Notes: generated from the letters alone by a model not told the origin. Counted from the stretch's first letter, positions 4,858 to 24,337 are shown. The stretch is DNA of 41,331 nt from an uncultured Bacilli bacterium (GCA_934700375.1 CAKUXT010000001.1:1-41331); one strand, 5' to 3'. A program made the numbers and translations.

Positions 4858-6715
4858 AAGCGTAGACCCCCCAATCGGCTAAGAAGAAGATAGCAGCACA
4901 GATGACGATAGGAAGAAGGTTATCGAAGATGCTGTTTCCTTTTTTGACTTTAGTGTCGATATTCAAAGAAAGCTTCTCTGTGTCGACAACATGCGGAACT
5001 CTTTCATCGTCAGGATAACGAGAATAGAGATCGATTGTCTTTTCGCTGCCATCCTGGTAGGTGACATTTGTCTGATAGGTTCCGATTTCATCAAGCGTAT
5101 AGGTGAGATAGTCTTTGTTTGTGATAGAGAAGGTCTCTGTCTTTCCACTCGGTGTCTTTAAAGAGACGGCTTTTAAGTTGTTGGATAGCGTGACTTTGAT
5201 ATCGTCTCCGACTTCATATGCGTATTTGTCCATGATCTTCGGATTGGTATACATGAATGCATTTCTCATCAATACACTGTAGTCATACTGCATCGGAAGA
5301 TCGGAATCGTGAAGGTCGAAGGAGAAGACGACTTCTCTTTGCTGATTATCTGTCTTTCCGGCAAAGACAAACGGAATGTTGTCATAGCTGAGAATGGTTG
5401 TGAAGTCGGAAGTCAGAGAGTAACGGACATATTTTTTGACGGCGATATCGTTATGTGCGATATTCGCTGTCAAAGAATTGTAGAGCAAGGAAGAGGTGTT
5501 GTCTGCATAAGTGAGATGGACAGCCTCATCTGCTTCGACTGCTTTCTGAGCGATGAATCCAGTACCTTGTAAAGTGGTGGAAGAGTTGAAGAAGATGATG
5601 GAACCGGATTTAGGAAGAGAGGAAGGAGTGAAAGAATCATAGATATAAAGGTCGTAGTTGATAAGAGGATTGTAGTTATTTGTGCTGACGACTGTGACAT
5701 CGTTCTTATAGTCGGATTTGTTGTTGATCGCGGAGAGAATCGCTTTGATATAGAAGGGATCATCGGAGACCAATAAGACTTTTGCCATAGCGGTATCGCT
5801 GTTGTTATAGACGATCATCTCATTGTCTTCAGGAAGAGAATCCTCATCGACGATCTGTGCTTCGACAGAGGAGATATCTTTGTATTTTCCTTTGACATCC
5901 TTGTATTCGATCTTGAAAGCGTAAGGTGTTGCTTTCTTGACGGAATACTTTCTTGTTCCGATTTCCTCTTTGTTGACAAAGAAACGGACAGTCAGATTCT
6001 TGTCAGAGAGATGAGAAAGGACGCTTGCGTTCATAGAGAGGGTGCTGTCCTCATAGGAATAAGTGAGATCGGATAAGGAGTAATTGTCTTTTTCGATACT
6101 GCAGTCGATGAGATTGATGTTGTTCAGATTCTCGACTTTCTTATCGGTGAGAAGATAACATAAATTGATATTGTTGTTTTCAATGACTTCCTGGGCTTTG
6201 GAAAGAGAATCGCCGAGATCGTTCTTCAGATTCTCAGCCTTCAAAGAATCGACATAAAGGGAAAGCTGGTTTTTGTTTGTGACATTCTGGAAGACTACTC
6301 TGGTCTCTTTTCCGGAATAGACCAAAGAAAAAGCAGAACCGTTTTTGCTTTCTTCTGCTATTTTGTTGATCTCTTTCTTCGCTTTGTCAAAACTTGTCTC
6401 TTCTCCGTCTTTCATGTTCATGGAAGCGGAGCCATCCAATATGAAAAGAACATTGTCAGTCTTGTTGGGAGTCGTGATGATAGGATGGGCAAGGCAGATA
6501 GCAAGAGCGGAAATCGTTGCAATCTGCAGAAGCAAAGCAATCAGGTGTTCGAAGGTGTGAAGGGGGCTTCTCTTCTTCAAAAACTTTTTGCTTAACTCCC
6601 ATAAATAAGTGGAAGGAGTCGTTGATTCTTTGTATTTGTTCTTCAATAGATAGATGATGATAAGGACAGGGATTGCAAGAAGAATCAGAAATGCATAGGG
6701 ATAGAGAAAACTCAT
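4844..6715 (-). CDS. BatA-like VWA membrane protein (aerotolerance-regulator N-terminal domain type)
   Basis: The ORF is 623 aa. Its N-terminus MSFLYPYAFLILLAIPVLIIIYLLK is typical of BatA_N. It carries the MIDAS motif FILDGSASMN and a C-terminal TM (LLPIVICAAIFFLADWGVY). An ATGA start/stop overlap links it to the DUF58 gene. Confidence 0.8.
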   Translation of the reverse strand: MSFLYPYAFLILLAIPVLIIIYLLKNKYKESTTPSTYLWELSKKFLKKRSPLHTFEHLIALLLQIATISALAICLAHPIITTPNKTDNVLFILDGSASMNMKDGEETSFDKAKKEINKIAEESKNGSAFSLVYSGKETRVVFQNVTNKNQLSLYVDSLKAENLKNDLGDSLSKAQEVIENNNINLCYLLTDKKVENLNNINLIDCSIEKDNYSLSDLTYSYEDSTLSMNASVLSHLSDKNLTVRFFVNKEEIGTRKYSVKKATPYAFKIEYKDVKGKYKDISSVEAQIVDEDSLPEDNEMIVYNNSDTAMAKVLLVSDDPFYIKAILSAINNKSDYKNDVTVVSTNNYNPLINYDLYIYDSFTPSSLPKSGSIIFFNSSTTLQGTGFIAQKAVEADEAVHLTYADNTSSLLYNSLTANIAHNDIAVKKYVRYSLTSDFTTILSYDNIPFVFAGKTDNQQREVVFSFDLHDSDLPMQYDYSVLMRNAFMYTNPKIMDKYAYEVGDDIKVTLSNNLKAVSLKTPSGKTETFSITNKDYLTYTLDEIGTYQTNVTYQDGSEKTIDLYSRYPDDERVPHVVDTEKLSLNIDTKVKKGNSIFDNLLPIVICAAIFFLADWGVYAYEQY

Positions 6716-7587
6716 TTGATAATCCCCCTTTGTATCATTTTGTTCAGGAATAATTCTTTCATGTCATCGCCTGTGGAGAGGAAGAGATATTCGGCTTCTC
6801 TTGAATGACAGAAAGAACTCGTTTTTTCGGTGACGAATTTCAGTGCCTTCTTATATGCGTTGAGAACGTCTCTATTGATGTTGTCCTTGTAGAATTTGTT
6901 GTCGTTTTCACTATCGTGAAGCACGAACTTTCCTCTCAGGTTGGGATTGATCTCCTCTTCACCCAACAGCTGGATGCAGAGAACATCTCTCTTCTTTCCT
7001 CTTAAGTAATCGATCGCATCGGTATAGTTGTTATCGGTGAGGAAATCTGAAATCAGGATGGATTTGCCATCTCCGTATCCGACAGTGGAACGGATAATAG
7101 CATCGGAGATGAAGGAATCGCCTTCGAATATGATGTTGTTGAGCTTGTTGACGGAGTTTAAGAAGGCATCCTTTCCGATGACGTTCTCTAAGACAGGAAC
7201 AGCCTGCTTTCCTTTGATGACATAGATGTTGACTTTATCCATATCCTTCAAGGAGAGATAACTGAAAGCAGTGGCAAGACGGATTGCGTATTCTCCCTTG
7301 TTGAAGTACTTCATGGAGGTAGAACCGTCGATATAGATTCTAGTCTGCATCTGTCTCTCATCGAGATAGAGTTTCAGATACATCTTTTCGAACTTGCCGT
7401 AGATATTCCAGTCGATCTTGGTGACATCATCGCCTTCCATATAGTCTCTGTAATCGGCAAATTCACAGGACGAACCATATTTCTTAGATTTATGGTTACC
7501 ACCGAAAAGACCGGCGACATTATCTTTTACCGATAAAGAGAAAAGTTCGATTTGCTGAAGAAACTGTTCGTCGATCGCTTGTTTCAT
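6712..7587 (-). CDS. DUF58 family protein (VWA-like; usual partner of MoxR)
   Basis: The ORF is 291 aa. It contains GGNHKSKKYGSSCEFADYRDYMEGDDVTKIDWN followed by IYIDGSTSM, the DUF58 signature. It lies 3 nt downstream of moxR. Confidence 0.88.
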   Translation of the reverse strand: MKQAIDEQFLQQIELFSLSVKDNVAGLFGGNHKSKKYGSSCEFADYRDYMEGDDVTKIDWNIYGKFEKMYLKLYLDERQMQTRIYIDGSTSMKYFNKGEYAIRLATAFSYLSLKDMDKVNIYVIKGKQAVPVLENVIGKDAFLNSVNKLNNIIFEGDSFISDAIIRSTVGYGDGKSILISDFLTDNNYTDAIDYLRGKKRDVLCIQLLGEEEINPNLRGKFVLHDSENDNKFYKDNINRDVLNAYKKALKFVTEKTSSFCHSREAEYLFLSTGDDMKELFLNKMIQRGIIK

Positions 7588-7590
7588 ATT

Positions 7591-8577
7591 TTACTTTTTC
7601 TTTCTGATTTCTTTTGTCAATAAGCCGATGACTTTATCGACAGTAAGATTATCGTTAATTGCGTTGTAATTGATTTTGATTCTGTGTCTTAAGACAGGAT
7701 AGGCTAAGGCATCGATATCATCATAGGAGACATTGTAGTTGCCGTGGATCAAAGCACGGATCTTTGCACCGGTGATAAGAGCCTGGCAGGCACGAGGAGA
7801 AGCACCATAACGGATATACTTCTTTGCAGTATCGCTGGCATCATCAAGTTCGGAATGTGTGCTGTGGACAAGTTCCATTGCGTATTCAAGAACCTGAGGG
7901 AGACAAGGGACATCCTGAGCGAGCTTTCTCATATGGAGAATGGTTTCGCCATCGACGACCTTTGTCGCATTTTCGTTCATGTTCTTCTGTGTCATGTTGA
8001 CGATGTCGCCGAGCTCTTCGACGTTCGGATACTCCATGATGACCTTGAACATGAAACGGTCCATCTGAGCTTCAGGAAGCGGATAAGTACCATCCTGTTC
8101 AATCGGGTTATCAGTTGCTAAGACGAAGAACGGCTCAGCCATCGGGTAAGTGACGCCGGAAACTGTGACTTTGTGTTCCTGCATGACTTCGAGCATGGCT
8201 GCCTGTGTCTTCGGGGTAGCACGGTTGATTTCATCAGCTAAGATGATCTGTGCGAAGATAGGTCCCTTCTGGAAGGTCGTGACCAAGTTTTCGTTTTCGT
8301 CTTTACGGATGATGTTTGTACCAGTGACATCGTTCGGCATAAGGTCCGGTGTGAACTGAATACGGGAGAAAGGAAGGTTGAGCGTCTGTCCTAAGGAACG
8401 GACAAGACGTGTCTTACCAGTTCCAGGGACACCTTCAAGCAGGACGTTGCCGCCTGCGATGACGGCGATGACAACGTCATCGATGACTTCTTCCTGACCG
8501 ACGATATCTTTGTGCAACTCTTCTTTGATCTTCTTGACTGATTCACTGAATTCAGTGATTAATTCTTGATTTTCCAT
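7591..8577 (-). CDS. moxR: MoxR-family AAA+ ATPase
   Basis: The ORF is 328 aa, with Walker A GVPGTGKT and Walker B IILADEINRATPKTQAAMLEVMQE. The length is typical of AAA_3 proteins, and the C-terminus has the RYGASPRA motif. Confidence 0.93.
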   Translation of the reverse strand: MENQELITEFSESVKKIKEELHKDIVGQEEVIDDVVIAVIAGGNVLLEGVPGTGKTRLVRSLGQTLNLPFSRIQFTPDLMPNDVTGTNIIRKDENENLVTTFQKGPIFAQIILADEINRATPKTQAAMLEVMQEHKVTVSGVTYPMAEPFFVLATDNPIEQDGTYPLPEAQMDRFMFKVIMEYPNVEELGDIVNMTQKNMNENATKVVDGETILHMRKLAQDVPCLPQVLEYAMELVHSTHSELDDASDTAKKYIRYGASPRACQALITGAKIRALIHGNYNVSYDDIDALAYPVLRHRIKINYNAINDNLTVDKVIGLLTKEIRKKK

Positions 8578-10941: not shown

Positions 10942-13900
10942 ATGAAAAATGTCAAAAAATCAGTATTGTTATCTCTTATCTCCTTGGCTTTGATCTCCTG
11001 TGGCGAAAACACATCGGCTTCCGATGTGACCACTGCCACTCGTCCAACTGATAAGGTTACAAATACTGAGACAGCAAAACCGATTGAGACTGCTACACCG
11101 GATACAACAGTCGGCCCGGATACTACTATACCGGATACAGACAGTGAACCTAGCACAGACAGCGAACCTAGCACGGATGAAGATGCCTGGGGCGAAGAAA
11201 TCAGCTCTTTGATGAGCAAGCATTTAGGCGGAGTTGTTCTTCCCTATATTTCCTTAGGAAGAAACCCTGAAGGTTCCTGGACAAGAAATTCCGGAGACTA
11301 TGGTATTCTCACAGTCATCGGAAGCAAGTTCAATAAGGACCTTCTTACCACTGCTACCACTGCTTTTGAAGCAAAGGGATGGGCTTGTACTGCTACAGCA
11401 ACAACTTTCACAGGTGAATTGAAAGACAAACATGTCAAAGTCGAATTGACCAGCGATCAGTATGGATATGCATTGCTCACTGCTGTTTATGATGAACCCT
11501 TTGATGCGACAAGTGTCGATAGCTGGGATCAGGATACTTTGGATAGCATGCGCGATCATTTGGGCGGCCATACGCTTCCTTTCATTTACACAGGTATGGC
11601 AGTTCCTTTCACACAGTGGTCCAATACGACCAAGACCTTCTCCATCGACGGCGGAAAATGGGATGACAGCGTCCTTGATCTTGCTCTTGCTTCTTTGACG
11701 AAAGCAAACTACACCAATGTCAAGAAGACAACAGAGAGCTGGGGTGTTGTCGTCAGCGGTGATTTCACCTTTGACGATGGATGCTCTGTATCCGTCTCTC
11801 TTTATAAATCAGGTGCGGAGACTGTTCCTTTCCCGTATCTTTCTGTCTTCTACAAAGAAGCCTACAATCCTGTCGAAGGCGCAACATGGCCTAATGTCAT
11901 TTCCGATCGTTTCAATGATAGCTTCGATGGTCATCAGCTCCCTTATCTCTATTTAGGCAGCGATGTTCTTTCTTCCGATTGGAACTCCACAGTCACCAAG
12001 CTTACAATTAGCGGCGGTGCTTTTGATACCCGTATGTTTGCTTCGGCAAAAGCTACACTTGCAGCCGATGGATATGACTGCACGGATGAGATGGATGGCA
12101 AGGGTGTACAGAAGTCCCTCATCGCTTCCAAGAAGATGAGCGAGGGCTGTACCATGGTCGCTGTATTATTTGGCAACTCCAAGTTGGCTAAGCTGGATGT
12201 TTACTACTATTCTCCTTTAAGCATTCCTGCTGATGCTACTGAATTTGATGAAGTCGTCAAGGCAAAGATGGACAAATATCTCGATGGTCACAGCGCAGAA
12301 GTTCCTTTTGTCTATTTAGGAGCGGATGTCTTGGATGTTTCCTTTGATGATTATGATGATGCTTTGGAAATCGTCGGAGACAAGTTCAATGGCGCCATGA
12401 TCGACAATGCAAAGAAATCCTTCGCTGATGCCGGTTATACCGTTTCCATGGCAAGCGATGAATCCTATGGAAGAGTCTTCACTGCTACAAAGACTTTATC
12501 CGATAAGTGTGTCATTACTGCAAAGATGGAATCAAGCTATGGAACAAAGACTGCAGTTCTTTCCCTTTCCTGTGTAGAAGGCTATAACCCTCCGAGTGCA
12601 GGAAGCACAGAAGCAGCATGGAGCGAGACTATCAAGGGTGCCATGACACTTGAATTGGGTGGCCATGTCCTTCCGTATTTCTATCTCGGCACAAAAGCTG
12701 CTACCTTAAAGCAGAGCAAGAACACCATCGAACTTGTCGGTGGTTCTTATAACAGCCTGATCCTTGCTTCTACAAAGGAAGCTCTTAAGACAATGGAAGG
12801 ATTCACTTGGACCTTCACTGATGGTGTCGATAGAATCGATGGAACAGGTGTTGATAAAGACGGCAACAAGATCACCATCGCACTTTACAAGAACTCTAAG
12901 AACAAGGTCTATTTCAAGGCCACATATCTGAAAGCATTTGTCGTTCCGACAAATGGTGCCTGGAGCGAAGCCATCCAGAGCGCAATGACTACAAACTTCG
13001 GTGAGGTTTTGCCTTTTGTCTATCTTGCCATAGATGCTCCTGAAGCAGGTGAATTCTATGATGGAAGATTAGATATCAAAGGCGGAACATGGGATGATCA
13101 GATGTATGACCTTGCAGAAAAGGCGTTCAAGGCTTCCGGATTCACTCTTAGCACCGGAACCAGCGAAAATGATTCTGGTGAAATGGTCACTGCTTATAAG
13201 GAAAGCAATGGAAAACTGATCCGTCTTGCTGTCTATAATTCCAGTGATGTTGCTATGTATAGAGCCTGTGTCGATGAAGCTCCGACATATCCTACTGATC
13301 AGACCGATTGGTCTTCTGCTATCAAGACTGCTATTGAAGGATATATGGGAACCACGAATACGATTCCGTATTTCTATACTGGTGAAAGTACACCTACTAC
13401 ACGTCAAAGAACATGGCCCGGAAACGGAAAGATCTATTTGCAGATCTCTAACCTCAAGAACTGGAATCAAAACTATACATTGAATGCAAAGAAGGTTTTG
13501 GAAGCTGCTGGATGGACAACAACTTTCTATGCAGTTCAGGGAGACACCAGCTCTGCTGCAGGTGCTAAATTAGTCGAAAAGAATACTTATAGCGATGGCT
13601 CCAGTGTCGTCCTTACAATCAAGGCTGGATATTCAAATACCATCTATATCGCCTATCAGAAACCATTCACTCCTAGCCTTGAAACAAGTTGGGCTCCGAC
13701 TGTTCTCAATGCGATGGAATCCAATTTGAATGGCCATGTCATTCCTTATTTCTATATGGGTACAGATGAACCTGCCTTCCAGTTCGACAGAACCACACAT
13801 TGCTTGACGGTTGTCGGCGGTGTCTGGAATGAAGAAATCTATGGCTTAGCCGAAAAGGCTTTGAAAGCAGATACAAGCCTTGATTGGAATATTCTTTATG

Positions 13901-14058
13901 ATTATTCTGTCGGCCAGTATTCTTCCGGCAAGACATTGATTGCGGTTGCTGAAGAAAAAGATACCGGCAAGCATCTCACCGTCAAGATCTATAATGCAAC
14001 ATCCGGTACAAACGAATACGGTGTCCAGGCTCCTGTCATGGAAGTCTATTACAACTAA
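10942..14058 (+). CDS. Giant surface lipoprotein built from eight ~115-aa repeat modules (paralogue 1)
   Basis: The ORF is 1038 aa, with a signal peptide and lipobox LALISC (Cys20). A T/P/D/S-rich linker follows, including a tandem DSEPST x2 encoded by an 18-bp DNA repeat at 11150-11185. Eight modules begin at about aa 83, 195, 316, 434, 560, 674, 790 and 917. Each starts W-x3-(I/L)-x2-M-x3-L-G-G-H-x-LP(Y/F)-x-Y-(L/M/T)-G and contains A-x3-(F/L)-x3-G-(W/F/Y). Confidence 0.85.
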   Translation: MKNVKKSVLLSLISLALISCGENTSASDVTTATRPTDKVTNTETAKPIETATPDTTVGPDTTIPDTDSEPSTDSEPSTDEDAWGEEISSLMSKHLGGVVLPYISLGRNPEGSWTRNSGDYGILTVIGSKFNKDLLTTATTAFEAKGWACTATATTFTGELKDKHVKVELTSDQYGYALLTAVYDEPFDATSVDSWDQDTLDSMRDHLGGHTLPFIYTGMAVPFTQWSNTTKTFSIDGGKWDDSVLDLALASLTKANYTNVKKTTESWGVVVSGDFTFDDGCSVSVSLYKSGAETVPFPYLSVFYKEAYNPVEGATWPNVISDRFNDSFDGHQLPYLYLGSDVLSSDWNSTVTKLTISGGAFDTRMFASAKATLAADGYDCTDEMDGKGVQKSLIASKKMSEGCTMVAVLFGNSKLAKLDVYYYSPLSIPADATEFDEVVKAKMDKYLDGHSAEVPFVYLGADVLDVSFDDYDDALEIVGDKFNGAMIDNAKKSFADAGYTVSMASDESYGRVFTATKTLSDKCVITAKMESSYGTKTAVLSLSCVEGYNPPSAGSTEAAWSETIKGAMTLELGGHVLPYFYLGTKAATLKQSKNTIELVGGSYNSLILASTKEALKTMEGFTWTFTDGVDRIDGTGVDKDGNKITIALYKNSKNKVYFKATYLKAFVVPTNGAWSEAIQSAMTTNFGEVLPFVYLAIDAPEAGEFYDGRLDIKGGTWDDQMYDLAEKAFKASGFTLSTGTSENDSGEMVTAYKESNGKLIRLAVYNSSDVAMYRACVDEAPTYPTDQTDWSSAIKTAIEGYMGTTNTIPYFYTGESTPTTRQRTWPGNGKIYLQISNLKNWNQNYTLNAKKVLEAAGWTTTFYAVQGDTSSAAGAKLVEKNTYSDGSSVVLTIKAGYSNTIYIAYQKPFTPSLETSWAPTVLNAMESNLNGHVIPYFYMGTDEPAFQFDRTTHCLTVVGGVWNEEIYGLAEKALKADTSLDWNILYDYSVGQYSSGKTLIAVAEEKDTGKHLTVKIYNATSGTNEYGVQAPVMEVYYN

Positions 14059-14112: not shown

Positions 14113-14452
14113 ATGCTTTTTTAAAGATGGAAGAGCTTACATTTATTCTAACCAATTCTGTACTTACTGATATTCGTTTGAGCTATTTTAATAAAATATT
14201 AAGAAAATGGTGATGAAATTTAAAGAAAACTGAAAAAACACAAAGTGGAAAAAATTCAATCAAGCGCTTACAAAAAGCCTTTTATTTTCATCACTTTTGT
14301 TCGAATTGATGAAAATTGGCTGATTTTGTTGAAAAAGCTGATGAAATTCTAAATTTTTAATACTTTTTGGCTGTTTTCTCATTGAAAAACATGTTTTAAC
14401 TTCCAAAATCAAATATCAATAATTGTATATACCCATTTGGGAGGTAAACGAT

Positions 14453-17400
14453 ATGAGAAAAAATAAAATCATTCTTACGGCTCTGCTTGCACTCGTCCTT
14501 GGAGGCTGCGGAACCAATACGAATTCTTCGGTCTCTAAGCCAACAGAATCGGCTACGGCCAAGGACACAGGTACAGAAATAGCACCTGTCACAGAAGGTC
14601 CGGTTTCTACTGACACAACCAGTGATTCTGGTTTTGTCACAGACATCATGGATAGTTCCACTGAATCCAGTTCAGAGGAGTTTGAAGAGACATGGAATGA
14701 TGATGTCTATGATTTGATGATGGTACATTTAGGAGAACAGGTTGTTCCCTTCTTTGACATGGGAAAGAATGTCGAAGCAAAGTGGGTTGCCAAGACCGGT
14801 CTTCTCACTGTCATGGGATCTAACAGTCTCAACAATAAGAGATTGCTGGAAGTCAAAGCCTTGTATGAGGAAAAAGGATGGACAGGAACAGAAGTCACAG
14901 ATACCTCTGAATCTTTGACGGTGACAAATGAAGAACTGCATCTTTCTGCTGTTCTCTCTGAAGATAAGTATGGTTATGTTCAGTTTGCCATCACCTATGA
15001 TGAACCGTTTGATGCAACAAAGGCAAAAGGCGAATGGAATGATGATGTCAAAGCAGCTTTCAATACTTATTTGGATGGCCATATCCTTCCTTATGTCTAT
15101 CTTGGTACGGATAACAACCAGTATTTATCCTGGGCTTCTGGCTCAAAGATTCTCACTATTAGAGGAAAGAAGTGGGATGATTCCATTGCTGATGCTGCAA
15201 AGAAGGCTTTTGGCGATTTTCAGCTCGAAACAAGTGTCGATTCTTATGATAGAACAGTCTCTGTCTTTAAGAAAGTGTTCTCTGACGGCTGCAGTTTCTC
15301 TGTCAAAGTTTCACCTACTAGCAGCAAAGACAATCCGAAAGCCAACTATATCATCACCTATTCTGAGGTCTTTGACGCAAGCACAGTCACAGAATGGAAA
15401 CAGGATGTCAAAGCCGATCTTGCAACCTTACATAATCACGAGCTCCCCTTTATCTATTTAGGAACAAAGGCTCCGACAAGCAAGAAGGGAACTAATACTG
15501 TTACAATCACCGGAAACAAATTCGATGTCGAAGTCATCACGACAGCTCAGGCTCAGTTTGAGAAGGCGGGATGGGAGACTTATAAAGGGACGGGTACATA
15601 TGGTGATGCTGTTTTCGCACTTCATGTCTTTGATGATGGATGCACGATAACAGCCTCTGTCCAGCAGTCTTCTTCGTCTACTTCCAGTGCCTATAATACA
15701 CTGGTCTTTGCGAGGTACGATAAACTGGTACCCTCAACTGATGTCACTGATTGGACGGATGCTGCAAGAGCCAACATGATCTCGAATCTTGGCGGTCATC
15801 TCATTCCGTTCAGCTTCATCGGCTCTACAATGACCAGCAAAGTCGATACAAGCACTAGAGCAGTGACAGTCACAGGGGATGCTTTCAATCCGACAATGGT
15901 CAGCAATTTCAAGGCTGTATTGGACAAAGATGGATGGACAGCAAAGTATTCGACAAATAAATACGGCAGAACCTTGGTGGCATCGAAAGAATTTGAGGAT
16001 GGTACGGTTTCTTTGACAATCGGCGCTCCGTATTCTCTTTCTTCGAAGATCAGCGTTGTCGCATCCTATCGTGAAAAGTTTGATGTTCCTTCTTCCGGCG
16101 GATGGTCAGAAACAGACCTTCAGGCGATGAAGGATGCCTTAGGCGGATATTCTATTCCGTACTTCTATATGGGAACAGATGCACCGGTTGTCTCTGCCTC
16201 TAAGACTGTGGAAGGCTCGGTTACTATCACTGGCGGACTTTGGAATGATCAGATCACAGACCTGTTTGATGAGGCGATCAAGGCCGATACGGCATTGACA
16301 TGGACGCTCTTGGATGATGGATCTTTAACTAATAAAATCATTTATCATGGAAAGGATGAGAAAGGAAATCTCCTTGTTCTTACTTTGACAATTCCAACTG
16401 TTGCCACAAAGAAAACATCGCTATTGATTCGTTATAAGGCTGCTTATGATCCGACGATGATGACAAAGTGGGATGATGATACAATCGCTGCGATGAAGAC
16501 AAATCTCAACGGACATGAGATGCCGTTTGTCTATTTAGGAAGCAAGGCAGTCGCTGCTAAAATAAGTTCGACTGGCTTCACTATTGAAGCTGAAGACTAT
16601 GCTACATTCGATCAGAGAATCCTTGACGAAGCTAAGAAGACTTTTGAAGCTGCTGGATTCACGACGAATACCAAATTGAACACCTACTATTATTCATGCC
16701 TTGAAGGAACAAAGACTTTCGATGATGGCTATACAGTTCGTTTTGTTTTGGAAAAGGCGGGTACAGCTGAATTGGCTGAGCCGCGTCTTGTCATGTATCT
16801 CGATAAGCCATTAACCGATACGAAGGCGGAAGATTATTCTTGGGGACTTACAATAGCTGATCAGACCAAGCTCGATAACTTCTTAGGAAGCTATAAGGCT
16901 CCTGATGTCTTTATGGGTACTGGAGCAACAGTAAAATGTTCTGTGTCTCAAGTCACAAAAGGCAACAACTACGCAAGACTCTATGCCTCCTTCAATAAGA
17001 CAGTTGCGCCACAGAACAACGGCTATATTCTTCAGGCTAAGAAAGACCTTGAAACACAGGGCTTCACGATGACCAAATATGTCATCAACAACGGTTATAC
17101 TGGATCCGGCATGGAATTCAGCAAGAAACTTGATGATGAAAATGAAATGAAAGTCGCTGTCAGAATGTCTTCTTCTAATATGGAGCTCTATATCTCCATC
17201 GTTCCGATCTTCACGCCTACGGAAAAAACCGCATGGAATGATAGAATTACTGCTCAAATGAAGTATTACTTTGATGGCTATGTTCTTCCTTTCTTCGATA
17301 TTGGTGACGAATATCCGTCTGTAAAATTCGATTACACAAAGGGTACACAGACATTGGTTTTGCAAAGTGCTACATATGATGACTCTATCTTCACTTCCGC

Positions 17401-17614
17401 AGAAGCTGCTTTTAAGGCAGATACGACCTTTGGCGGAACATGGGAATGCTCGGTGTTTGAAGAGAAATCGACTGATAAGATGGAACCGTTAAAGAGCTTG
17501 CGTGCAAGATGCTATAACAAAAAGACGAAGAAGACAATGACAATCTTAATTGCTGCCTCTTATACTGGCGACAATATGAGCAAATACGTCAAGGCAACAG
17601 TCAATTACTTCTAA
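14453..17614 (+). CDS. Giant surface lipoprotein built from eight ~115-aa repeat modules (paralogue 2)
   Basis: The ATG at 14453 has GGGAGG 8 nt upstream. The track start at 14423 is a TTG without an SD. The protein begins MRKNKIILTALLALVLGGC (lipobox, Cys19), followed by a T/S/E-rich linker. Eight modules share the anchors of paralogue 1 (ETWNDDVYDLMMVHLGEQVVPFFDMG ... TAWNDRITAQMKYYFDGYVLPFFDIG). Confidence 0.85.
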   Translation: MRKNKIILTALLALVLGGCGTNTNSSVSKPTESATAKDTGTEIAPVTEGPVSTDTTSDSGFVTDIMDSSTESSSEEFEETWNDDVYDLMMVHLGEQVVPFFDMGKNVEAKWVAKTGLLTVMGSNSLNNKRLLEVKALYEEKGWTGTEVTDTSESLTVTNEELHLSAVLSEDKYGYVQFAITYDEPFDATKAKGEWNDDVKAAFNTYLDGHILPYVYLGTDNNQYLSWASGSKILTIRGKKWDDSIADAAKKAFGDFQLETSVDSYDRTVSVFKKVFSDGCSFSVKVSPTSSKDNPKANYIITYSEVFDASTVTEWKQDVKADLATLHNHELPFIYLGTKAPTSKKGTNTVTITGNKFDVEVITTAQAQFEKAGWETYKGTGTYGDAVFALHVFDDGCTITASVQQSSSSTSSAYNTLVFARYDKLVPSTDVTDWTDAARANMISNLGGHLIPFSFIGSTMTSKVDTSTRAVTVTGDAFNPTMVSNFKAVLDKDGWTAKYSTNKYGRTLVASKEFEDGTVSLTIGAPYSLSSKISVVASYREKFDVPSSGGWSETDLQAMKDALGGYSIPYFYMGTDAPVVSASKTVEGSVTITGGLWNDQITDLFDEAIKADTALTWTLLDDGSLTNKIIYHGKDEKGNLLVLTLTIPTVATKKTSLLIRYKAAYDPTMMTKWDDDTIAAMKTNLNGHEMPFVYLGSKAVAAKISSTGFTIEAEDYATFDQRILDEAKKTFEAAGFTTNTKLNTYYYSCLEGTKTFDDGYTVRFVLEKAGTAELAEPRLVMYLDKPLTDTKAEDYSWGLTIADQTKLDNFLGSYKAPDVFMGTGATVKCSVSQVTKGNNYARLYASFNKTVAPQNNGYILQAKKDLETQGFTMTKYVINNGYTGSGMEFSKKLDDENEMKVAVRMSSSNMELYISIVPIFTPTEKTAWNDRITAQMKYYFDGYVLPFFDIGDEYPSVKFDYTKGTQTLVLQSATYDDSIFTSAEAAFKADTTFGGTWECSVFEEKSTDKMEPLKSLRARCYNKKTKKTMTILIAASYTGDNMSKYVKATVNYF

Positions 17615-17622
17615 AATCTATG

Positions 17623-17664
17623 CAAAACAAAATCACTCCGCAAGGATTGATTTTGTTTTGTTTC
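17623..17664. terminator. Bidirectional rho-independent terminator between convergent genes
   Basis: A perfect 13-bp stem pairs caaaacaaaatca (17623-17635) with tgattttgttttg (17648-17660), plus an inner tcc/gga pairing. T runs sit on both sides. Confidence 0.85.
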
Positions 17665-17692
17665 TATATTTAACAATCTGAATTATATATGT

Positions 17693-18103
17693 TTAAGTTG
17701 TAGGATGATCTTTTCTATATCTGTTCATCTTGATTCTATTATAGATGTCGATGGCAAGGGAGGGAAGAATCATCAGAGATGGTAGAAGAATGAACAGCGT
17801 GATCGGCTTTTCGACTGTCTTCTTCGTAAGAAGATAGAAGAAGAGAGAATAGACAAGGAAGCAGATGATGGAGATATAGAAGAAGTTGCTTGTCGTCATC
17901 TTTTCCTTTTCGTTTTTCTTCAATAAGGAATAGTATTGTTTTTTGTCTTTGAAGTAGAAGATATCCATCACGATCTGATAGATGCAATAAGCGGCAAGGA
18001 AGAACTGGAAGAGAACAAGGATGGTATAGATGAGATAGAACCAGAGGTTGTCTTTGAAATCATCCGGCTGTTTTAGGAAGAAGTCGATGACATTGGTGAA
18101 CAT
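17693..18103 (-). CDS. Small polytopic membrane protein (136 aa, about 4 TM), function unknown
   Basis: The start MFTNVIDFF at 18103 has AAGGAG 10 nt upstream. The 31 residues the track adds upstream are not hydrophobic and lack an SD. Four hydrophobic segments are present. Confidence 0.6.
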   Translation of the reverse strand: MFTNVIDFFLKQPDDFKDNLWFYLIYTILVLFQFFLAAYCIYQIVMDIFYFKDKKQYYSLLKKNEKEKMTTSNFFYISIICFLVYSLFFYLLTKKTVEKPITLFILLPSLMILPSLAIDIYNRIKMNRYRKDHPTT

Positions 18104-18255
18104 TGATCTCTCTCTCCTTTCTTTGTTTTGTAGCAAGGTGGGAAAATCATGCATAAGGCTAAGACAAAGGTGATACAGTCCTCGATAAGCCTCCATAAAA
18201 GAAGACTTTTTTCGGCCTGGTGTGATGCTTTTTTCACTTCTTTGTTTTCTGTCAT
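18073..18255 (-). CDS. Possible 60-aa single-TM protein overlapping the next gene by 31 nt in another frame
   Basis: The ATG at 18255 has AGGAAG 7 nt upstream. The product is MTENKEVKKASHQAEKS, then a TM segment LLLWRLIEDCITFVLALCMIFPPCY, then a basic tail. It could instead be the 5' part of a frameshifted gene. Confidence 0.35.
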   Translation of the reverse strand: MTENKEVKKASHQAEKSLLLWRLIEDCITFVLALCMIFPPCYKTKKGERDQCSPMSSTSS

Positions 18256-18310
18256 ACTGTTTCTTCCTTGAATTCTCTTAACATATCAATTATCCTTCTC
18301 GTCTATACAT

Positions 18311-18338
18311 ATTGTAAACCAATTGTCTATTAAATCAA
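18311..18338 (-). promoter_or_regulatory. Candidate sigma-A promoter for the small membrane-protein gene(s)
   Basis: On the minus strand this reads TTGATT (18338-18333), a 16-nt spacer, then TACAAT (18316-18311). It lies immediately after the response-regulator stop codon. Confidence 0.45.
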
Positions 18339-18344
18339 TTGAAA

Positions 18345-19142
18345 TTATTCTTTGGCGTTCTTTTCAACGGCTTCATTCAGCTGAGGGGTGAATTCGTTGG
18401 TCCAGTCATAGTTTGTCATGAAAGAGCCGCTTTCAAAAGAGTTGTTCATGCCATCAAGAAAATCCCAGTAATCGGAGTGTACTCCAGTATTTCTTAAAAG
18501 CAGCTTTGCTTTTCCGAATTCGACAATATCGCCGACTCCATTGTCCTTCAATGTCTTTCTTAAGCGCCATACGGCATCGCGATAGAGCTTTTTGGCAAGG
18601 TCGAGCTCTTTCTCGGGCCAAAGGTGATAGATGGCATCGCTCATTGTCAAAGTGGAGCCGTGGTAGGCGGTAAGAAGAGCGAGAAGCTCTTTTGCTTTTG
18701 TCGATTTGAATCCGACTGCTTTTCCGTTGACAAAGAGATCAAATGGGCCTTGGCATTTGAGGAAGATGTCTCTGTTCTCTTTGGCTGTGATAGAGGAGAC
18801 ATAGAAGTTGAGCTTATCGGAATCGAAAGGCTTATAGCAGAATCCTAAAAGGTTGTCTCCTAATCTCTGCTGAATCTCTTCTTCATCATAGGTGAAGCCG
18901 GTGATAAAGATGATCTTGATGGTCGGATTGATCTTGATCAGTTTCTCGGCCAAGTCGACACCGTTGATGATCGGCATACGGATATCAAGGAATGCAGCAT
19001 CGACTGCATTCTCTTCGCAATAGTCGAGAGCGTCCAACGGGTTTTCCAAGAAGAACTTGTATTCAATCTGTTTGTCATTGATGATCTGAAGCAAGAAGTT
19101 GCTCAAAGCTTCCATCTCATCATCTACTGCAATGATTTTCAT
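18345..19142 (-). CDS. Response regulator: REC domain fused to a SARP-type winged-helix DNA-binding domain with a truncated BTAD
   Basis: The ORF is 265 aa. The receiver is intact (D7-D8, D53 in FLDIRMP, T81, K104). The C-terminal part LKCQGPFDLFVNGKAVGFKSTKAKELLALLTAYHGSTLTMSDAIYHLWPE...AVWRLRKTLKD...HSDYWDFLDG matches the SARP/AfsR-type wHTH pattern. The SD overlaps the stop codon of the upstream gene. Confidence 0.8.
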   Translation of the reverse strand: MKIIAVDDEMEALSNFLLQIINDKQIEYKFFLENPLDALDYCEENAVDAAFLDIRMPIINGVDLAEKLIKINPTIKIIFITGFTYDEEEIQQRLGDNLLGFCYKPFDSDKLNFYVSSITAKENRDIFLKCQGPFDLFVNGKAVGFKSTKAKELLALLTAYHGSTLTMSDAIYHLWPEKELDLAKKLYRDAVWRLRKTLKDNGVGDIVEFGKAKLLLRNTGVHSDYWDFLDGMNNSFESGSFMTNYDWTNEFTPQLNEAVEKNAKE

Positions 19143-19153
19143 AATATTATCTC

Positions 19154-21007
19154 CTATTTCTTTGGAATGATGATTTCAACTGTCGTTTCATCATCATCGT
19201 TTCTGACAGACAGCTTTCCTTTGATGGTCAGCTGCAGTCTCTCTTTGATGTTTCTGATTTCTTCTTCGTCCTCATCGATTGTATGACTATGTCGATGGTC
19301 TATCAATTGTACTACAAATTCTTTTTTGTTTTCTATAGAGGATACCTCCATCATGTTCTTTTCTTCATCAATATCCATGATATTCTGCATATAGAATTTT
19401 TCGATGATGGTAAGGATGGTCAAAGGCGGTATCATGAACTCGTAGGCTTCGATGTTGAGAACAAGCGGTATTGCTTTGTTCTCTCTTGTGCTTTGGAAGT
19501 CATTGAAGGAGATAAGACCATCTATTTCATCGGAGAATGTCACTAGCATTCTATTCATGGATGTGATGTTATAGCGAAGCACATTGGAGAAGGAGGAAAG
19601 GGAATTGTCTCCTTTCGAGAGATCTCTGTGGTAGGTGTCTTCGATGATGGAAAGAGCGTTGAATATGACATTGGGATTGACCTGCTGCTGAAGTGCAATC
19701 GTCTTCAGATAGGTCTGTTCGCTCATGATCTTTTTCTCTTCTTCTGCTTTCTTCTTTAGGTACATTGTTCTGATAAAGAAGACAGAATAGCAAAGAATGC
19801 TTCCGATGAAGATGGTATAGGAAATCATATAGGCAATCTGGAAGGAGAACATGTTTGCGTCATCAAGTGTTGCTATGACAATGTTCCCTAACAAGGAGAA
19901 GAAGAGGATGATATAGATGTTTTCAATGGTATTTGTATTGGATGATGAAATCTGATAGAAGGTCAGAACAGAATAGAGAATGATGCAGATGATGAAAGGA
20001 ATCAGGAAGGTCGTATGATAGATCAAAGAGAGTCTGCTGATGATGGTGCTGATTCCTAAGACACTATAGGCTGTGATCAACAGCTTTCTCTGAGGTATCT
20101 TTCTGTTCAGAATGATACATAAAGGACAAACGATCATAAACAATCCCAAGAAGACAATTGAAATCGATTTATATAGCGTATAGGAGGTATTTGGTATGTT
20201 TATCAGCTTCATGATGACAAGTCCGTCACCGGAGAAAAGCCAGTAACATAGTAAACACAAGGCGGCCAGTGATGGAGGAAGCGTCTTAAGAAAACCGGAT
20301 CTCATGATACCGGTGATCGTCAGAAGCAAAAGACATCCCATCATGACACCGAGAATGCAGAAGAGAAGGAGCTGTCTTCCTCTCTGCCTTGGTGTCTGAA
20401 TCTGACTGGAGATGATCGTCGGCCCTTTGATGATGCAGGCATGATGGGAGTTTCCGACTTCGATTGTCACTGTGATTTCGTTTTTTGTAGTTCTGAAATC
20501 CGCTTTTTTCGTAAAACGGTTTTCGATCTTATCCTCTTCTTTGATTTTGCTGGGTTCACCGTTCTGACCGATTAAGACATTATCAAAGAAGATTCGTAAA
20601 GAGGAGTAGGAATAATCGCTGTCGGCTGTGATCTTGATGCCGACAGGGACATTGATGATTTTAAAGCGATAGCTTGCATAGCCGCTGGTAGGAAGATTCT
20701 TGCCGTCTACTTTTACCGATGTCCAGAAATCAGGAAGAGTGATCATACTATCAGGCTTTGCTTTCTTTTCCTTGTCAGTCACAATCCATTTGTTGTAATA
20801 GAATTCCATGCTTCCTTTCACATAAATGCCGTCGGTTCTCTGGCTGATGTCTCTGTTATGGAAATCCATGACGCCGTTTCTGATCATATAGGTGCTGTTT
20901 TTGTATAGCGATGTATCAAAAATGATTCCTAAAATAGAAGGCAGAAGAAGGAATAGGACGGAGAGAGCAATGGTGATGATTCTGTTTTTTCTGTTCTGTT
21001 CTTTCAT
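19154..21007 (-). CDS. 7TM sensor histidine-kinase paralogue with a degenerate catalytic core (predicted pseudokinase)
   Basis: The ORF is 617 aa and shares the architecture of the upstream kinase: signal anchor, ~180-aa ectodomain, 7 TM helices and a LytS-type core. Its H-box reads QQVNPN446VIFNALS, with Asn in place of His (codon at 19670-19672). The N-box is E536-K537, the G1 box is D570-H-R-H-S, and there are no G2/G3 glycines. The ORF is intact, with an ATGA overlap at 21004-21007. Confidence 0.8.
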   Translation of the reverse strand: MKEQNRKNRIITIALSVLFLLLPSILGIIFDTSLYKNSTYMIRNGVMDFHNRDISQRTDGIYVKGSMEFYYNKWIVTDKEKKAKPDSMITLPDFWTSVKVDGKNLPTSGYASYRFKIINVPVGIKITADSDYSYSSLRIFFDNVLIGQNGEPSKIKEEDKIENRFTKKADFRTTKNEITVTIEVGNSHHACIIKGPTIISSQIQTPRQRGRQLLLFCILGVMMGCLLLLTITGIMRSGFLKTLPPSLAALCLLCYWLFSGDGLVIMKLINIPNTSYTLYKSISIVFLGLFMIVCPLCIILNRKIPQRKLLITAYSVLGISTIISRLSLIYHTTFLIPFIICIILYSVLTFYQISSSNTNTIENIYIILFFSLLGNIVIATLDDANMFSFQIAYMISYTIFIGSILCYSVFFIRTMYLKKKAEEEKKIMSEQTYLKTIALQQQVNPNVIFNALSIIEDTYHRDLSKGDNSLSSFSNVLRYNITSMNRMLVTFSDEIDGLISFNDFQSTRENKAIPLVLNIEAYEFMIPPLTILTIIEKFYMQNIMDIDEEKNMMEVSSIENKKEFVVQLIDHRHSHTIDEDEEEIRNIKERLQLTIKGKLSVRNDDDETTVEIIIPKK

Positions 21008-22902
21008 AACAGTGCCTTCCCTTCATACGGAAAAACAATCGTTGTCTTGGTTCCGTTTCCAAGACTGCTTTCGATTTTGATCTCTGCATTGAGATTCAGA
21101 TGGAGTCTTTCGATCAGATTCTCCTGACCGATAGACGTGCTTTTCGTTTTTGAAGTATCGTATCCGATGCCATTGTCATTGATGACGATGACGACATTTC
21201 CGTCTTCAAGGCTTGATGAAATGCTGATGAATCCATCATCCTTTTCATTCACTTTGGAGTAGTTGACGGAGTTCTCGACAATTGGTTCGATCGTCAAAGG
21301 GGGAACCATGAAATTGACGAAATCAAGATCGAGAATCAAATCGAAAGGCTTTGAAAAACGTTTGTTCTCCAATTCGATATATTGATTGATGGTTTCAATC
21401 TCTCTTTCAAAAGGAATCATCTCCTCTTTCATGTTCTTGATAGATTGGCGGAAGTTCTTAGAGAACATCGCCATGACTTCGTCTCCTTCTTCCATGTTCT
21501 CATGGTATAAGGAGCGGATGACAGACAATGTATTGAAAAGATAGTGTGGCTGAATCTGCTGTTTCAATGCGTTCTCTTTGATTCTGATTTTCTCATTGTA
21601 AAGCTTGTTGTAGTTCTCTGCAGATTTGACATGCTGGAAGAAGAGAACAATGAAGTAGATGATGAATAAAGTCGCTCGTATGGCGGAGATGACAGAAAAG
21701 ACTCCTTTGCTGTTGAAGGAGAACGGAGATTTGATTCTGATGATTTCATACAAAACATCACCGATTGTCAAAGAGAGAACAAAGACATTCAGATAGGAAA
21801 TGTTCTCTTGGGTGCCGGAAAAGAAGTGATAGGCATAAATGAGAAGAGGAAGAATCAGAATGATATAGGAGATATATTGATAAGGAGTATCGTACAACGA
21901 GAAAATAGAACAGAGCGAAGTGAGGAAAACCAAACCATTGATGAGTATTGTTTTCAAAGTCAGTTTTCCGTTGTTCTGGGCTTCGGAAAGCGTGATGATA
22001 TAGATGAATAAGGCGGTGAGAGTATATTGCAGGAATTCAAAGACAAAGTAGTTCGGATAGATGGAAAAACGATTGAAGACATTCAGTCCATCGCCGGAGA
22101 ACAGCAATGTCAGAAACAGAATGATGGTCAAAGAAAGAATGAAACGGGAAGAAGGATTCTTTCTGTCGGTCAATAAGAAGGACAATGCGGTAAGGATGGA
22201 AGCTAAGATGATTCCAAAAGAGAAAAAGATGATAGCTTCTGCAATCGATGCCTGACGGGAAGACTTTGTCGACGGGTAGATGCTTGGTACATCTTGTAAA
22301 CCGCCATGTCCGTTGTTTCCGACTTCGATTGTCATAATGACAACGCCATCGTCAGGAACGACAAGTGAAGACTGAGAGAATATCTTCCCAGATATATTGT
22401 TGGTGTTCTCCTCTTTGGAAAGAACGCCGTAATGATAGACGATGGTATTATTGAAATAGATTTTGACACTGTCTCCGTAATCCTGTTTTGCAATAGAAAA
22501 GATCTGACCGGGTTCGATGTTCTTCATCGTCATCCTATAGGTCGCAAAACCATCGGATGTCAGTTTATAGTTTTTCCCGTTTCGATGCAGTTCTCTTCCT
22601 ACCCAGGAATCCGGCATATTGATCTTTCCATCTGATATCGGATTCTTGATATGATCTGTCATCAACCATTGGTTATAGTAAAACTCGTATTCTCCATTTG
22701 GATAGACGATGTTTCCAGAATAGGTGTATCCGTTGAAATCCATGACGGTATCCACTAAGGACACTTTGATTTTTGCTTCATTTGCTTTATTGATGGACCA
22801 CAATAAAAGAGTCTGCCCGAAAAGCGAAATCAGCAAAATGATGAAGGTGATGATCTTCTGATAGACCTTGCGTTTTTTATTCATCAAATGATATTTTATC
22901 AA
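21004..22902 (-). CDS. 7TM (7TMR-DISM-like) LytS/YehU-type sensor histidine kinase
   Basis: The ORF is 632 aa from the TTG at 22902; the ATG at 22884 is an alternative start. It has an N-terminal signal anchor, an ectodomain and seven TM helices. The H-box is QQIQPH453YLFNTLS, the N-box is VE543-N544-SVNY, G1 is ND576NGIG, followed by SIGQEN and GNGTKT. Confidence 0.85.
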   Translation of the reverse strand: MIKYHLMNKKRKVYQKIITFIILLISLFGQTLLLWSINKANEAKIKVSLVDTVMDFNGYTYSGNIVYPNGEYEFYYNQWLMTDHIKNPISDGKINMPDSWVGRELHRNGKNYKLTSDGFATYRMTMKNIEPGQIFSIAKQDYGDSVKIYFNNTIVYHYGVLSKEENTNNISGKIFSQSSLVVPDDGVVIMTIEVGNNGHGGLQDVPSIYPSTKSSRQASIAEAIIFFSFGIILASILTALSFLLTDRKNPSSRFILSLTIILFLTLLFSGDGLNVFNRFSIYPNYFVFEFLQYTLTALFIYIITLSEAQNNGKLTLKTILINGLVFLTSLCSIFSLYDTPYQYISYIILILPLLIYAYHFFSGTQENISYLNVFVLSLTIGDVLYEIIRIKSPFSFNSKGVFSVISAIRATLFIIYFIVLFFQHVKSAENYNKLYNEKIRIKENALKQQIQPHYLFNTLSVIRSLYHENMEEGDEVMAMFSKNFRQSIKNMKEEMIPFEREIETINQYIELENKRFSKPFDLILDLDFVNFMVPPLTIEPIVENSVNYSKVNEKDDGFISISSSLEDGNVVIVINDNGIGYDTSKTKSTSIGQENLIERLHLNLNAEIKIESSLGNGTKTTIVFPYEGKALL

Positions 22903-22995
22903 ATCAATACACTCATTACTTATAAATATATGTAATATGTAAAATCATTAAGAATGATTGTGCAAAAAACTATTGTTAACAAAAGAAATCATTTT

Positions 22996-23004
22996 TGATA
23001 GAAT
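22996..23004 (+). promoter_or_regulatory. Candidate extended -10 promoter of eno
   Basis: The sequence tgatagaat has the form TGnTAGAAT, about 35 nt upstream of the ATG at 23039. No well-spaced -35 element was found. Confidence 0.4.
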
Positions 23005-23011
23005 AGTCTAG

Positions 23012-24337
<1,326 letters not shown>

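Follow-up and report, generated by a model that had tools for sequence, protein, structure and literature searches.

The window analysed here is a stretch of 41,331 nucleotides (nt) from an uncultured gut Bacilli bacterium (GCA_934700375.1, CAKUXT010000001.1:1-41331). It contains a three-gene signalling operon on the minus strand, in which an active-looking sensor histidine kinase, HK-A, is followed by a second kinase-like membrane protein, HK-B, and then by a response regulator that combines a receiver (REC) domain with a winged helix-turn-helix (wHTH). The HK-A open reading frame (ORF; 21004..22902, minus strand) encodes 632 amino acids (aa) when read from a TTG codon, HK-B (19154..21007, minus) has 617 aa and the regulator (18345..19142, minus) 265 aa. 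HK-B is a paralogue of HK-A and, as predicted from its sequence, a histidine pseudokinase. The three co-oriented ORFs, reported in a preliminary description of the window, were reproduced by ORF calling, and both junctions given there are present. The TGA stop of HK-A overlaps the ATG start of HK-B in an ATGA at 21004-21007 (minus), which allows translational coupling. HK-B and the regulator are separated by a spacer of 11 nt (19143..19153, minus), where an AGGAG ribosome-binding site overlaps the TAG stop of HK-B.

The length of 632 aa first given for HK-A is that of the ORF beginning with the TTG at 22902, which does exist; however, this TTG is probably not the real start. All HK-A orthologues begin (MNKKRK...) at an ATG that in the window lies six codons inside the TTG ORF, at 22885-22887 (minus). 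Because the orthologues start there, we place the start of HK-A at the ATG at 22887, and a protein of 626 aa is more likely. Upstream of HK-A, an intergenic region of 136 nt (22903..23038, not assigned to a strand) is shared with a divergently transcribed enolase gene and is, from its position only, the presumed promoter of the operon. A consensus scan of 17600-23100 found 16 promoter-like matches against 14.1 expected from shuffles and 5 terminator-like matches against 3.6, neither above expectation, so these counts speak neither for nor against the operon boundaries.

HK-A has an N-terminal transmembrane (TM) anchor, an ectodomain at about residues 38-221 and approximately seven TM helices in residues 222-431. 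Its cytoplasmic half consists of a PF06580 dimerisation and histidine phosphotransfer (DHp) domain, residues 432-526, and a GHKL catalytic domain, residues 527-632. In a Pfam profile search, PF06580 scored 68 bits (gathering cutoff 25.2), while HATPase_c scored 24.3 bits, just under its cutoff of 26.4; the N, G1, G2 and G3 motifs are nonetheless present. The ATP-site motifs read E543-N544, D576-N-G-I-G, SIGQEN (590-595) and GNGT (615-618), and the five motifs are invariant or near-invariant among the orthologues. The phospho-acceptor is His453 (QQIQPH453YLFN, codon 21544..21546, minus), which is invariant in all A orthologues; the H-box histidine is found in almost all of the ~150 family members examined. 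Among solved structures, a sequence comparison matches the two proteins only to the GanS kinase domain from Geobacillus (6swj/6swk), which aligns to HK-A with E=1.2e-15. This alignment puts the histidine of PHFLFN on H453, ENA on E543-N544 and DNGVG on DNGIG.

HK-A and HK-B align colinearly with 26% identity over 588 aa (E=1e-48), far beyond chance, and the motifs VMDF, EFYYN(Q/K)W, TIEVGN and LFSGDGL are common to both. By sequence the two are thus paralogues, as had been proposed. In HK-B the DHp-like domain (residues 425-519; 19451..19735, minus), identified by its profile match and the GanS alignment, scores 36.7 bits against PF06580, above the same gathering cutoff. It is followed by a degenerate GHKL-like domain (residues 520-617; 19157..19450, minus), where the predicted alpha/beta fold is kept but the Pfam search gives no HATPase_c match at E<=1. 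HK-B matches the GanS kinase domain with E=3.6e-07, and here the histidine of PHFLFN falls on Asn446 (NPN446VIFN, codon 19670-19672, minus), ENA on EK and DNGVG on DHRHS. The N-box asparagine is gone (E536-K537), G1 is replaced by D570-H571-R572 (in D570-H-R-H-S), the glycines of G2 and G3 are missing, and an acidic DEDEEE stretch occupies residues 578-583. Beside the lost histidine HK-B retains P445, F449 and N450, of which F449-N450 (H+3/H+4) are invariant. Every motif position and codon coordinate that had been listed for the two kinases is exact, and the reported lack of phosphotransfer motifs in HK-B is borne out by profile and structure-anchored alignments alike, which give Asn446 and no N, G1, G2 or G3 motif. 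The pair Y459-H460 is also conserved in HK-B, and H460 was considered as an alternative acceptor; it was rejected, as HK-A conserves H460 too and GanS is without it.

The full-length AlphaFold2 (AF2) model of HK-B is confident, with a mean predicted local distance difference test (pLDDT) score of 83.5, and consists of an N-terminal helix, a beta-rich ectodomain, helices bundled in the membrane, a hairpin of helices and, at the C-terminus, an alpha/beta domain. Among PDB entries Foldseek places this model closest to the kinase domain of GanS once more (6swk, E 1.7e-7, TMt 0.60), with many structures of DHp plus catalytic and ATP-binding (CA) domains next. As modelled, HK-B keeps the predicted kinase fold and has none of the catalytic motifs. 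We use the term histidine pseudokinase for a kinase homologue without the residues for ATP binding and/or autophosphorylation, the inactivity itself being predicted.

The sensor half of HK-B begins with an extracytoplasmic domain (residues 30-205; 20393..20920, minus), predicted to be a beta-sandwich with a fold like that of galactose-binding domains. Modelled separately, this ectodomain forms a beta-sandwich with an AF2 pLDDT of 89. Its best Foldseek matches in the PDB, all of them weak (E ~1e-4, TMq 0.4-0.56), are sugar-binding beta-sandwiches from beta-glucuronidases and beta-galactosidases of GH2 and from one beta-glucosidase of GH3; a carbohydrate-type ligand would fit the model. The polytopic membrane region (residues 206-424; 19736..20392, minus), assigned from hydropathy and AF2, includes LFSGDGL and has about seven predicted helices. 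The AF2 helices span residues 206-237, 239-257, 260-268, 276-301, 307-327, 332-355, 360-383 and 392-442.

In their layout of an anchor, a beta-sandwich ectodomain and about seven predicted TM helices, both kinases resemble 7TMR-DISM sensors, a resemblance that does not imply homology. Neither protein matches 7TMR-DISM_7TM (PF07695) or 7TMR-DISMED2 (PF07696) at E<=1 in the Pfam search. We dropped a membership in this family, as there is no Pfam match and hhalign against P0039, a protein with both PF07695 and PF06580, aligned the kinase core only. Of the 7TM-sensor architecture in the preliminary description, the arrangement of anchor, ectodomain and helices is thus predicted here as well, and the 7TMR-DISM label is loosely supported.

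The regulator has a complete REC domain (Response_reg, 57.7 bits), with DDE at 7-9, the acceptor D53 (LDIRMP) and K104. The winged helix is seen as a weak Trans_reg_C match under the cutoff (E=0.014, residues 148-202), and a tail of about 60 aa comes after it. In the Pfam profile search the regulator matches neither BTAD nor LytTR. Relatives that are 47-57% identical carry JGI labels of the 'SAPR family' in some cases and of the 'LytT family' in others. In the name REC-SARP first given to the regulator, REC is therefore clear; with a weak wHTH match and no BTAD match, SARP is tenable solely in the loose COG3947 sense of 'SAPR', as in the JGI labels of relatives. A similar restriction applies to the kinases. 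Their assignment to the LytS/YehU-type PF06580 DHp family stands, with both scores above the cutoff. However, because the profile search finds no 5TMR_LYT membrane domain in HK-A or HK-B and no LytTR in the regulator, the label 'LytS-type' is valid, by profile, for the DHp family only and does not extend to LytS proper.

The pairing of the two kinases is conserved. B-carrying loci were found in three different genomic contexts, 16 in total (L001-L012, L013, L014, L018 and L019). In 16/16 of them the B-type gene is full length and overlaps the stop of A, with an A-type kinase on one side and the regulator on the other. The first twelve come from metagenome-assembled genomes of uncultured gut Bacilli and from metagenomes, and all have the enolase gene followed by A, B and the regulator (12/12). 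Ten of these twelve have the 4-nt overlap between the A stop and the B start that is seen in the window, and it is also 4 nt long in the other two, L006 (A ends at 5938, B starts at 5935) and L008 (6001 and 5998). L013 has it too, reading GTGA; in L014 it is 14 nt. L018 and L019, found by scanning metagenome contigs with a B-clade profile, are 90% identical and have the same order of A, B and regulator, while the other 78 loci of that scan are generic PF06580 kinases that match the DHp/CA part only. A search of 5.8 billion proteins recovered ten clusters of B orthologues at 36-95% identity, each of them full length and carrying PF06580 alone, and the A orthologues were recovered in parallel.

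Sampling by way of the regulator extends this picture. L013 and L014 have regulators 67% and 61% identical to that of the window and lie in unrelated genomic neighbourhoods. In both, a canonical kinase and an overlapping degenerate kinase precede the regulator. At the H-box and G1 the degenerate kinase has NPN/DYR in L013 and KQN/DYR in L014, the latter protein being only 25% identical to HK-B. Further away, L015 and L016, with regulators 55-57% identical, have a single canonical kinase, and the regulator of L017 (51%) is an orphan. One A-type gene appeared at first to be a lost live kinase, the 578-aa HK-A of L011, and was rejected as such. Here a 1-nt frameshift at ~5860-5870, just after DNGIGY, interrupts the ORF on a contig of ~5x coverage, and the next frame encodes the rest of the conserved C-terminus intact. 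The frameshift is likely an assembly error or a very recent event.

Ratios of nonsynonymous to synonymous substitution (dN/dS) were calculated by the Nei-Gojobori method among five close loci. The value is 0.085 for the whole of HK-A and 0.044 for its catalytic domain. For HK-B it is 0.138 as a whole, 0.068 in the DHp and 0.127 in the dead catalytic domain. The regulator, at 0.047 and 70-97% identity, is the most conserved of the three genes. The degenerate domain, for which the preliminary description had proposed this calculation, is thus under purifying selection, at 0.127 against 0.044 in the catalytic domain of A. The same description had argued for a maintained gene rather than a decaying one; this agrees with the full-length B genes at all 16 loci and with the low ratios of both the whole protein and its CA-like part.

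The constraint is not evenly distributed. Mean pairwise identities per domain, computed among eight distant lineages, are 0.47 for A and 0.51 for B in the ectodomain, 0.40 and 0.37 in the membrane region, 0.64 and 0.51 in the DHp, and 0.65 and 0.44 in the catalytic domain. Among the same lineages 37% of the columns of the catalytic domain are invariant in A and 10% in B, and the B DHp has 23% invariant columns. Because the ectodomain identities match while that of the catalytic domain drops in B, the alignments indicate that the sensor half of B is constrained as strongly as that of A and that the relaxation is confined to the catalytic part.

Within that part, all B-clade members examined except P0090 conserve a new D-[HYT]-R motif where G1 would read DxGxG. 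The acceptor position is more variable: most lineages have N, D, E or Q, and two, P0006 (L008 6001-7842) and P0009, have His. Both read NPH at the acceptor, yet their ATP-binding domain is degenerate (DHR) like that of the other B proteins. The reported loss of the acceptor histidine hence holds for HK-B of the window but not for the B clade as a whole. Judged from these sequences, the universal trait of the clade is the degenerate ATP-binding domain, and the acceptor site behaves as an unconstrained polar position.

The wider family was collected by searching 1.84 billion representative proteins with a profile. The ~620-aa architecture of anchor, ectodomain, about seven TM helices and PF06580 kinase is matched at full length by more than 130 of them, and nearly all have canonical motifs (PH[FY].[FY]N, EN[AS], D[ND]G.G, G.N and G.GT). 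In a neighbour-joining (NJ) tree the B proteins form a clade with 94% bootstrap, which includes L014_HK2 and P0090, and the upstream A kinases form another (92%). The two clades are sisters (65% bootstrap) and nested among single canonical kinases. Since the farther regulator homologues (L015 and L016) adjoin a single canonical kinase, the pair of kinase and pseudokinase is derived. The simplest history that can be read from these sequences is a single duplication in tandem, after which the downstream copy lost catalysis. Outside the B clade, four further family members have partial or full loss of motifs. P0141 has H->Q and N->S, P0133 has lost nearly all motifs, and P0080 and P0085 keep the His but read NNGIPF at G1 and have no G3. 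By their sequences these four may be independent pseudokinases.

Given the paralogy of the two proteins, the loss of the motifs with retention of the predicted fold, the conserved synteny and coupling, and the purifying selection relaxed in the catalytic part alone, we lean towards HK-B being a non-catalytic co-sensor that modulates HK-A, probably as a heteromer. An ancestral PF06580 sensor kinase gene with a beta-sandwich, about seven TM helices, a DHp and a GHKL ATPase would have duplicated in tandem. The upstream copy, HK-A, would have kept autophosphorylation and phosphotransfer to the single REC-wHTH regulator, and the downstream copy, HK-B, would have lost ATP binding and, in the lineage of the window, the acceptor His, while keeping the ligand-binding ectodomain, the membrane domain and the DHp helices. 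Co-translated with HK-A by way of the overlapping stop and start, HK-B could be produced stoichiometrically, and it would most likely bind HK-A by the four-helix bundle of the DHp, by the membrane helices or by both. There it may set the balance that HK-A strikes between kinase and phosphatase activity, so that phosphorylation of the regulator would depend on two extracellular inputs, probably glycan-like. We infer that A and B associate physically, in which direction the effect runs and what the ligand is like. For the mechanism, FasBC, RocA-CovS and RetS-GacS are precedents.

A stricter form of this proposal can be speculated on, although we find it rather doubtful. HK-A and HK-B would then be an obligate heterodimeric receptor, in which the dead paralogue brings a second ligand-binding ectodomain with a different tuning and allosterically gates the live catalytic domain. 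If so, the pair would be a bacterial counterpart of ErbB2/ErbB3-type receptor pairs of kinase and pseudokinase, a two-input logic gate on one regulator, and the former ATP pocket would have gained a new element, structural or regulatory, in the conserved D-[HY]-R.

Several points weigh against HK-B as a non-catalytic co-sensor of HK-A. Its inactivity is a prediction from sequence, and some kinases with degenerate motifs stay active. HK-B could be an active kinase with non-canonical residues, for instance with H460 as acceptor and an unusual nucleotide pocket; the retained G1-box D570, the overall predicted fold and the conserved Y459-H460 are in line with this. We regard it as very improbable: H460 is equally conserved in the canonical HK-A and absent in GanS, the Mg-ATP-binding Asn and all lid glycines are gone, and HATPase_c is undetectable at E<=1. 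A further point is that F449-N450 and other DHp residues are kept, which would allow a role of HK-B as phosphatase or docking scaffold. An HK-B homodimer might then act alone on the regulator, either as a signal-controlled phosphatase of its phosphorylated form or as a scaffold that docks or sequesters it, and A and B would be antagonistic sensors that act on the same regulator with no mixed dimer between them. The DHp is indeed the best-conserved cytoplasmic part of HK-B (dN/dS 0.068, 23% invariant columns), and P445, F449 and N450, next to the lost His, are kept family-wide. In HisKA and HisKA_3 kinases the phosphatase activity does without the His itself and relies on a polar residue that follows it by a few positions, an analogy that is not established for PF06580. 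However, no phosphatase motif is defined for PF06580 kinases, and the conserved overlap of stop and start favours stoichiometric co-production, as for a complex. The variable acceptor residue (N, D, E or H) is neutral on this question, and overall we consider an HK-B that acts by itself unlikely.

The two His-bearing lineages also count against the co-sensor proposal, as B could be trans-phosphorylated by A there. This would correspond to a split-function heterodimer like that proposed for the Fas system, in which the DHp of B would be phosphorylated in trans by A and would then hand the phosphoryl group on to the regulator. Both P0006/L008 and P0009 have the acceptor His beside a dead ATP-binding domain, and FasB has been proposed to phosphorylate H246 of the pseudokinase FasC (PMC12675982). 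Such a relay is nevertheless quite improbable, with N, D, E or Q at the acceptor in HK-B of the window and in most of the B clade, and with an invariant His of its own in HK-A. Moreover, the His lineages are nested inside N- or D-bearing ones in the NJ tree, so the His looks like a single-nucleotide reversion and not like an ancestral requirement. A last point concerns the ligand class, which is drawn from a weak fold match (E ~1e-4). Finally, HK-B might be a decaying or recently inactivated duplicate without a function of its own. HK-B does evolve faster than HK-A, with 36-47% identity against 42-55% for A in the same genomes and dN/dS of 0.138 against 0.085. We give this explanation almost no credence, as HK-B is full length in 16/16 loci, dN/dS is far below 1 in every domain, and loci in different genomic contexts still have the pair at B identities as low as 25%. 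In addition, the B ectodomain is as conserved as that of A, and the new D-[HYT]-R motif is conserved in the place of G1.

The closest parallel to the operon as a whole is FasBCA of Streptococcus pyogenes. FasB and FasC heterodimerise and both act through FasA; in two-hybrid assays they interact with each other and not with themselves, and FasC, of which the catalytic domain is dispensable, is a proposed pseudokinase (PMC12675982). As at the present locus, two adjacent kinase-like membrane proteins and a single regulator are encoded in one operon. However, the Fas pseudokinase bears an essential His, H246, while HK-B has neither the His nor the ATP motifs and HK-A keeps both. HK-A and HK-B are also clearly paralogous over their full length, and the ectodomain is conserved in each. 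AgrC-like in type, the Fas proteins have six TM helices and a LytTR-type regulator and are not known to have a large ectodomain.

RocA of S. pyogenes is a membrane pseudokinase that binds and modulates CovS (PMC7028121). It resembles the co-sensor proposed here in being a sensor-kinase homologue with a degenerate CA domain that acts by direct interaction and needs no autophosphorylation. RocA differs in its six TM segments, in the absence of an ectodomain and in a dispensable His that is still present, and in the literature cited here it is not described as a paralogue of CovS. The rocA gene is not known to be part of the covRS operon.

RetS of Pseudomonas aeruginosa is a 7TMR-DISM sensor with a jelly-roll ectodomain and seven TM helices. 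Like the arrangement suggested for HK-B, RetS controls another kinase by mixed DHp dimers and not via a regulator of its own. Unlike HK-B, it is a HisKA-type hybrid with receiver domains, from a Gram-negative bacterium, that keeps its catalytic motifs and is neither adjacent nor paralogous to its partner GacS. The kinases of the GanS/YesM type, with PHFLFN as H-box context and ENA as N-box, are the closest solved relatives of both cytoplasmic halves. GanS-type kinases are single kinases with AraC- or LytTR-type regulators and different sensor domains, and we know of no pseudokinase partner described for them. The mixed dimers of RetS with GacS are cited in PMC12675982. In DivL of Caulobacter crescentus the acceptor His is absent, with Tyr instead; DivL regulates CckA, and its information flow is reversed by binding of phosphorylated DivK (PMC4211667). 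DivL and HK-B are alike as histidine-kinase homologues without the acceptor His, in DivL repurposed to regulate another kinase; DivL differs in being of the HisKA type, in having PAS domains and in not being a tandem paralogue of CckA. PsmA is a recent example of a pseudokinase from Streptomyces (PMC12963549).

No pseudokinase linked to PF06580 or LytS-type kinases was found in the searchable literature. The earlier statement that no pseudokinase partner is described for the LytS family thus holds for PF06580 within that literature but not for the general design, which is known from FasBC-FasA and RocA-CovS. What sets the locus apart from these systems is the combination, within the PF06580 family and with a REC-wHTH regulator, of a full-length paralogue as partner, an equally conserved large ectodomain and the loss of both the His and the ATP site. 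Also distinctive is that the pairing is demonstrably conserved and that the ancestral state with a single kinase is still present in relatives. Bacterial histidine pseudokinases are just being recognised (DivL, RocA, FasC and PsmA), and very few have a defined partner. The locus is a clean natural case: at every B-carrying locus, across a clade of uncultured gut Bacilli, a kinase, its own full-length dead paralogue with an overlapping start codon, and one regulator are encoded together. It bears on how two-component systems gain a second input, on asymmetric heterodimeric kinases and on the role of a GHKL domain after the loss of ATP binding. It is also a warning for annotation, as 'histidine kinase' calls by PF06580 include conserved non-kinases.

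No conserved target gene was found beside the operon across the loci compared. The enolase/CopA side is kept in the closer loci but not in L013 and L014. Downstream of the three genes lie, for example, NEAT-domain and Flg_new surface proteins in L001 (8763-13863) and TldD/PmbA with an ABC transporter in L003 (8938-11663). As the downstream neighbours vary and only the enolase/CopA side is conserved, no gene of the regulon can be read from synteny. In the window a predicted membrane protein of 167 aa (17693-18196, minus) is encoded 148 nt downstream of the regulator, with a weak match to DUF7358 (E=7e-4), and a gene of ~186 aa occupies the same position in L010 and L011. The 167-aa protein could be co-transcribed with the operon or be a regulated target.

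Convergent to the sensor operon are two adjacent genes for paralogous lipoproteins, 10942-14058 (plus) and 14423-17614 (plus), whose orthologues come after the operon in L010 and L011. The two proteins, of 1038 and 1063 aa, each have a Cys lipobox in the signal peptide. They share 28% identity from end to end (E=2e-98) and have no Pfam match. Both contain repeated modules of ~110-130 aa with the pattern 'W..D....M...L.GH.LP[FY].Y.G...'. Farther away, a cluster at 2203-8577 (minus) encodes BatA/VWA proteins (884 and 623 aa), a DUF58 protein (291 aa) and a MoxR-type AAA_3 ATPase (328 aa), and resembles the Bacteroides aerotolerance (Bat)-like operons.

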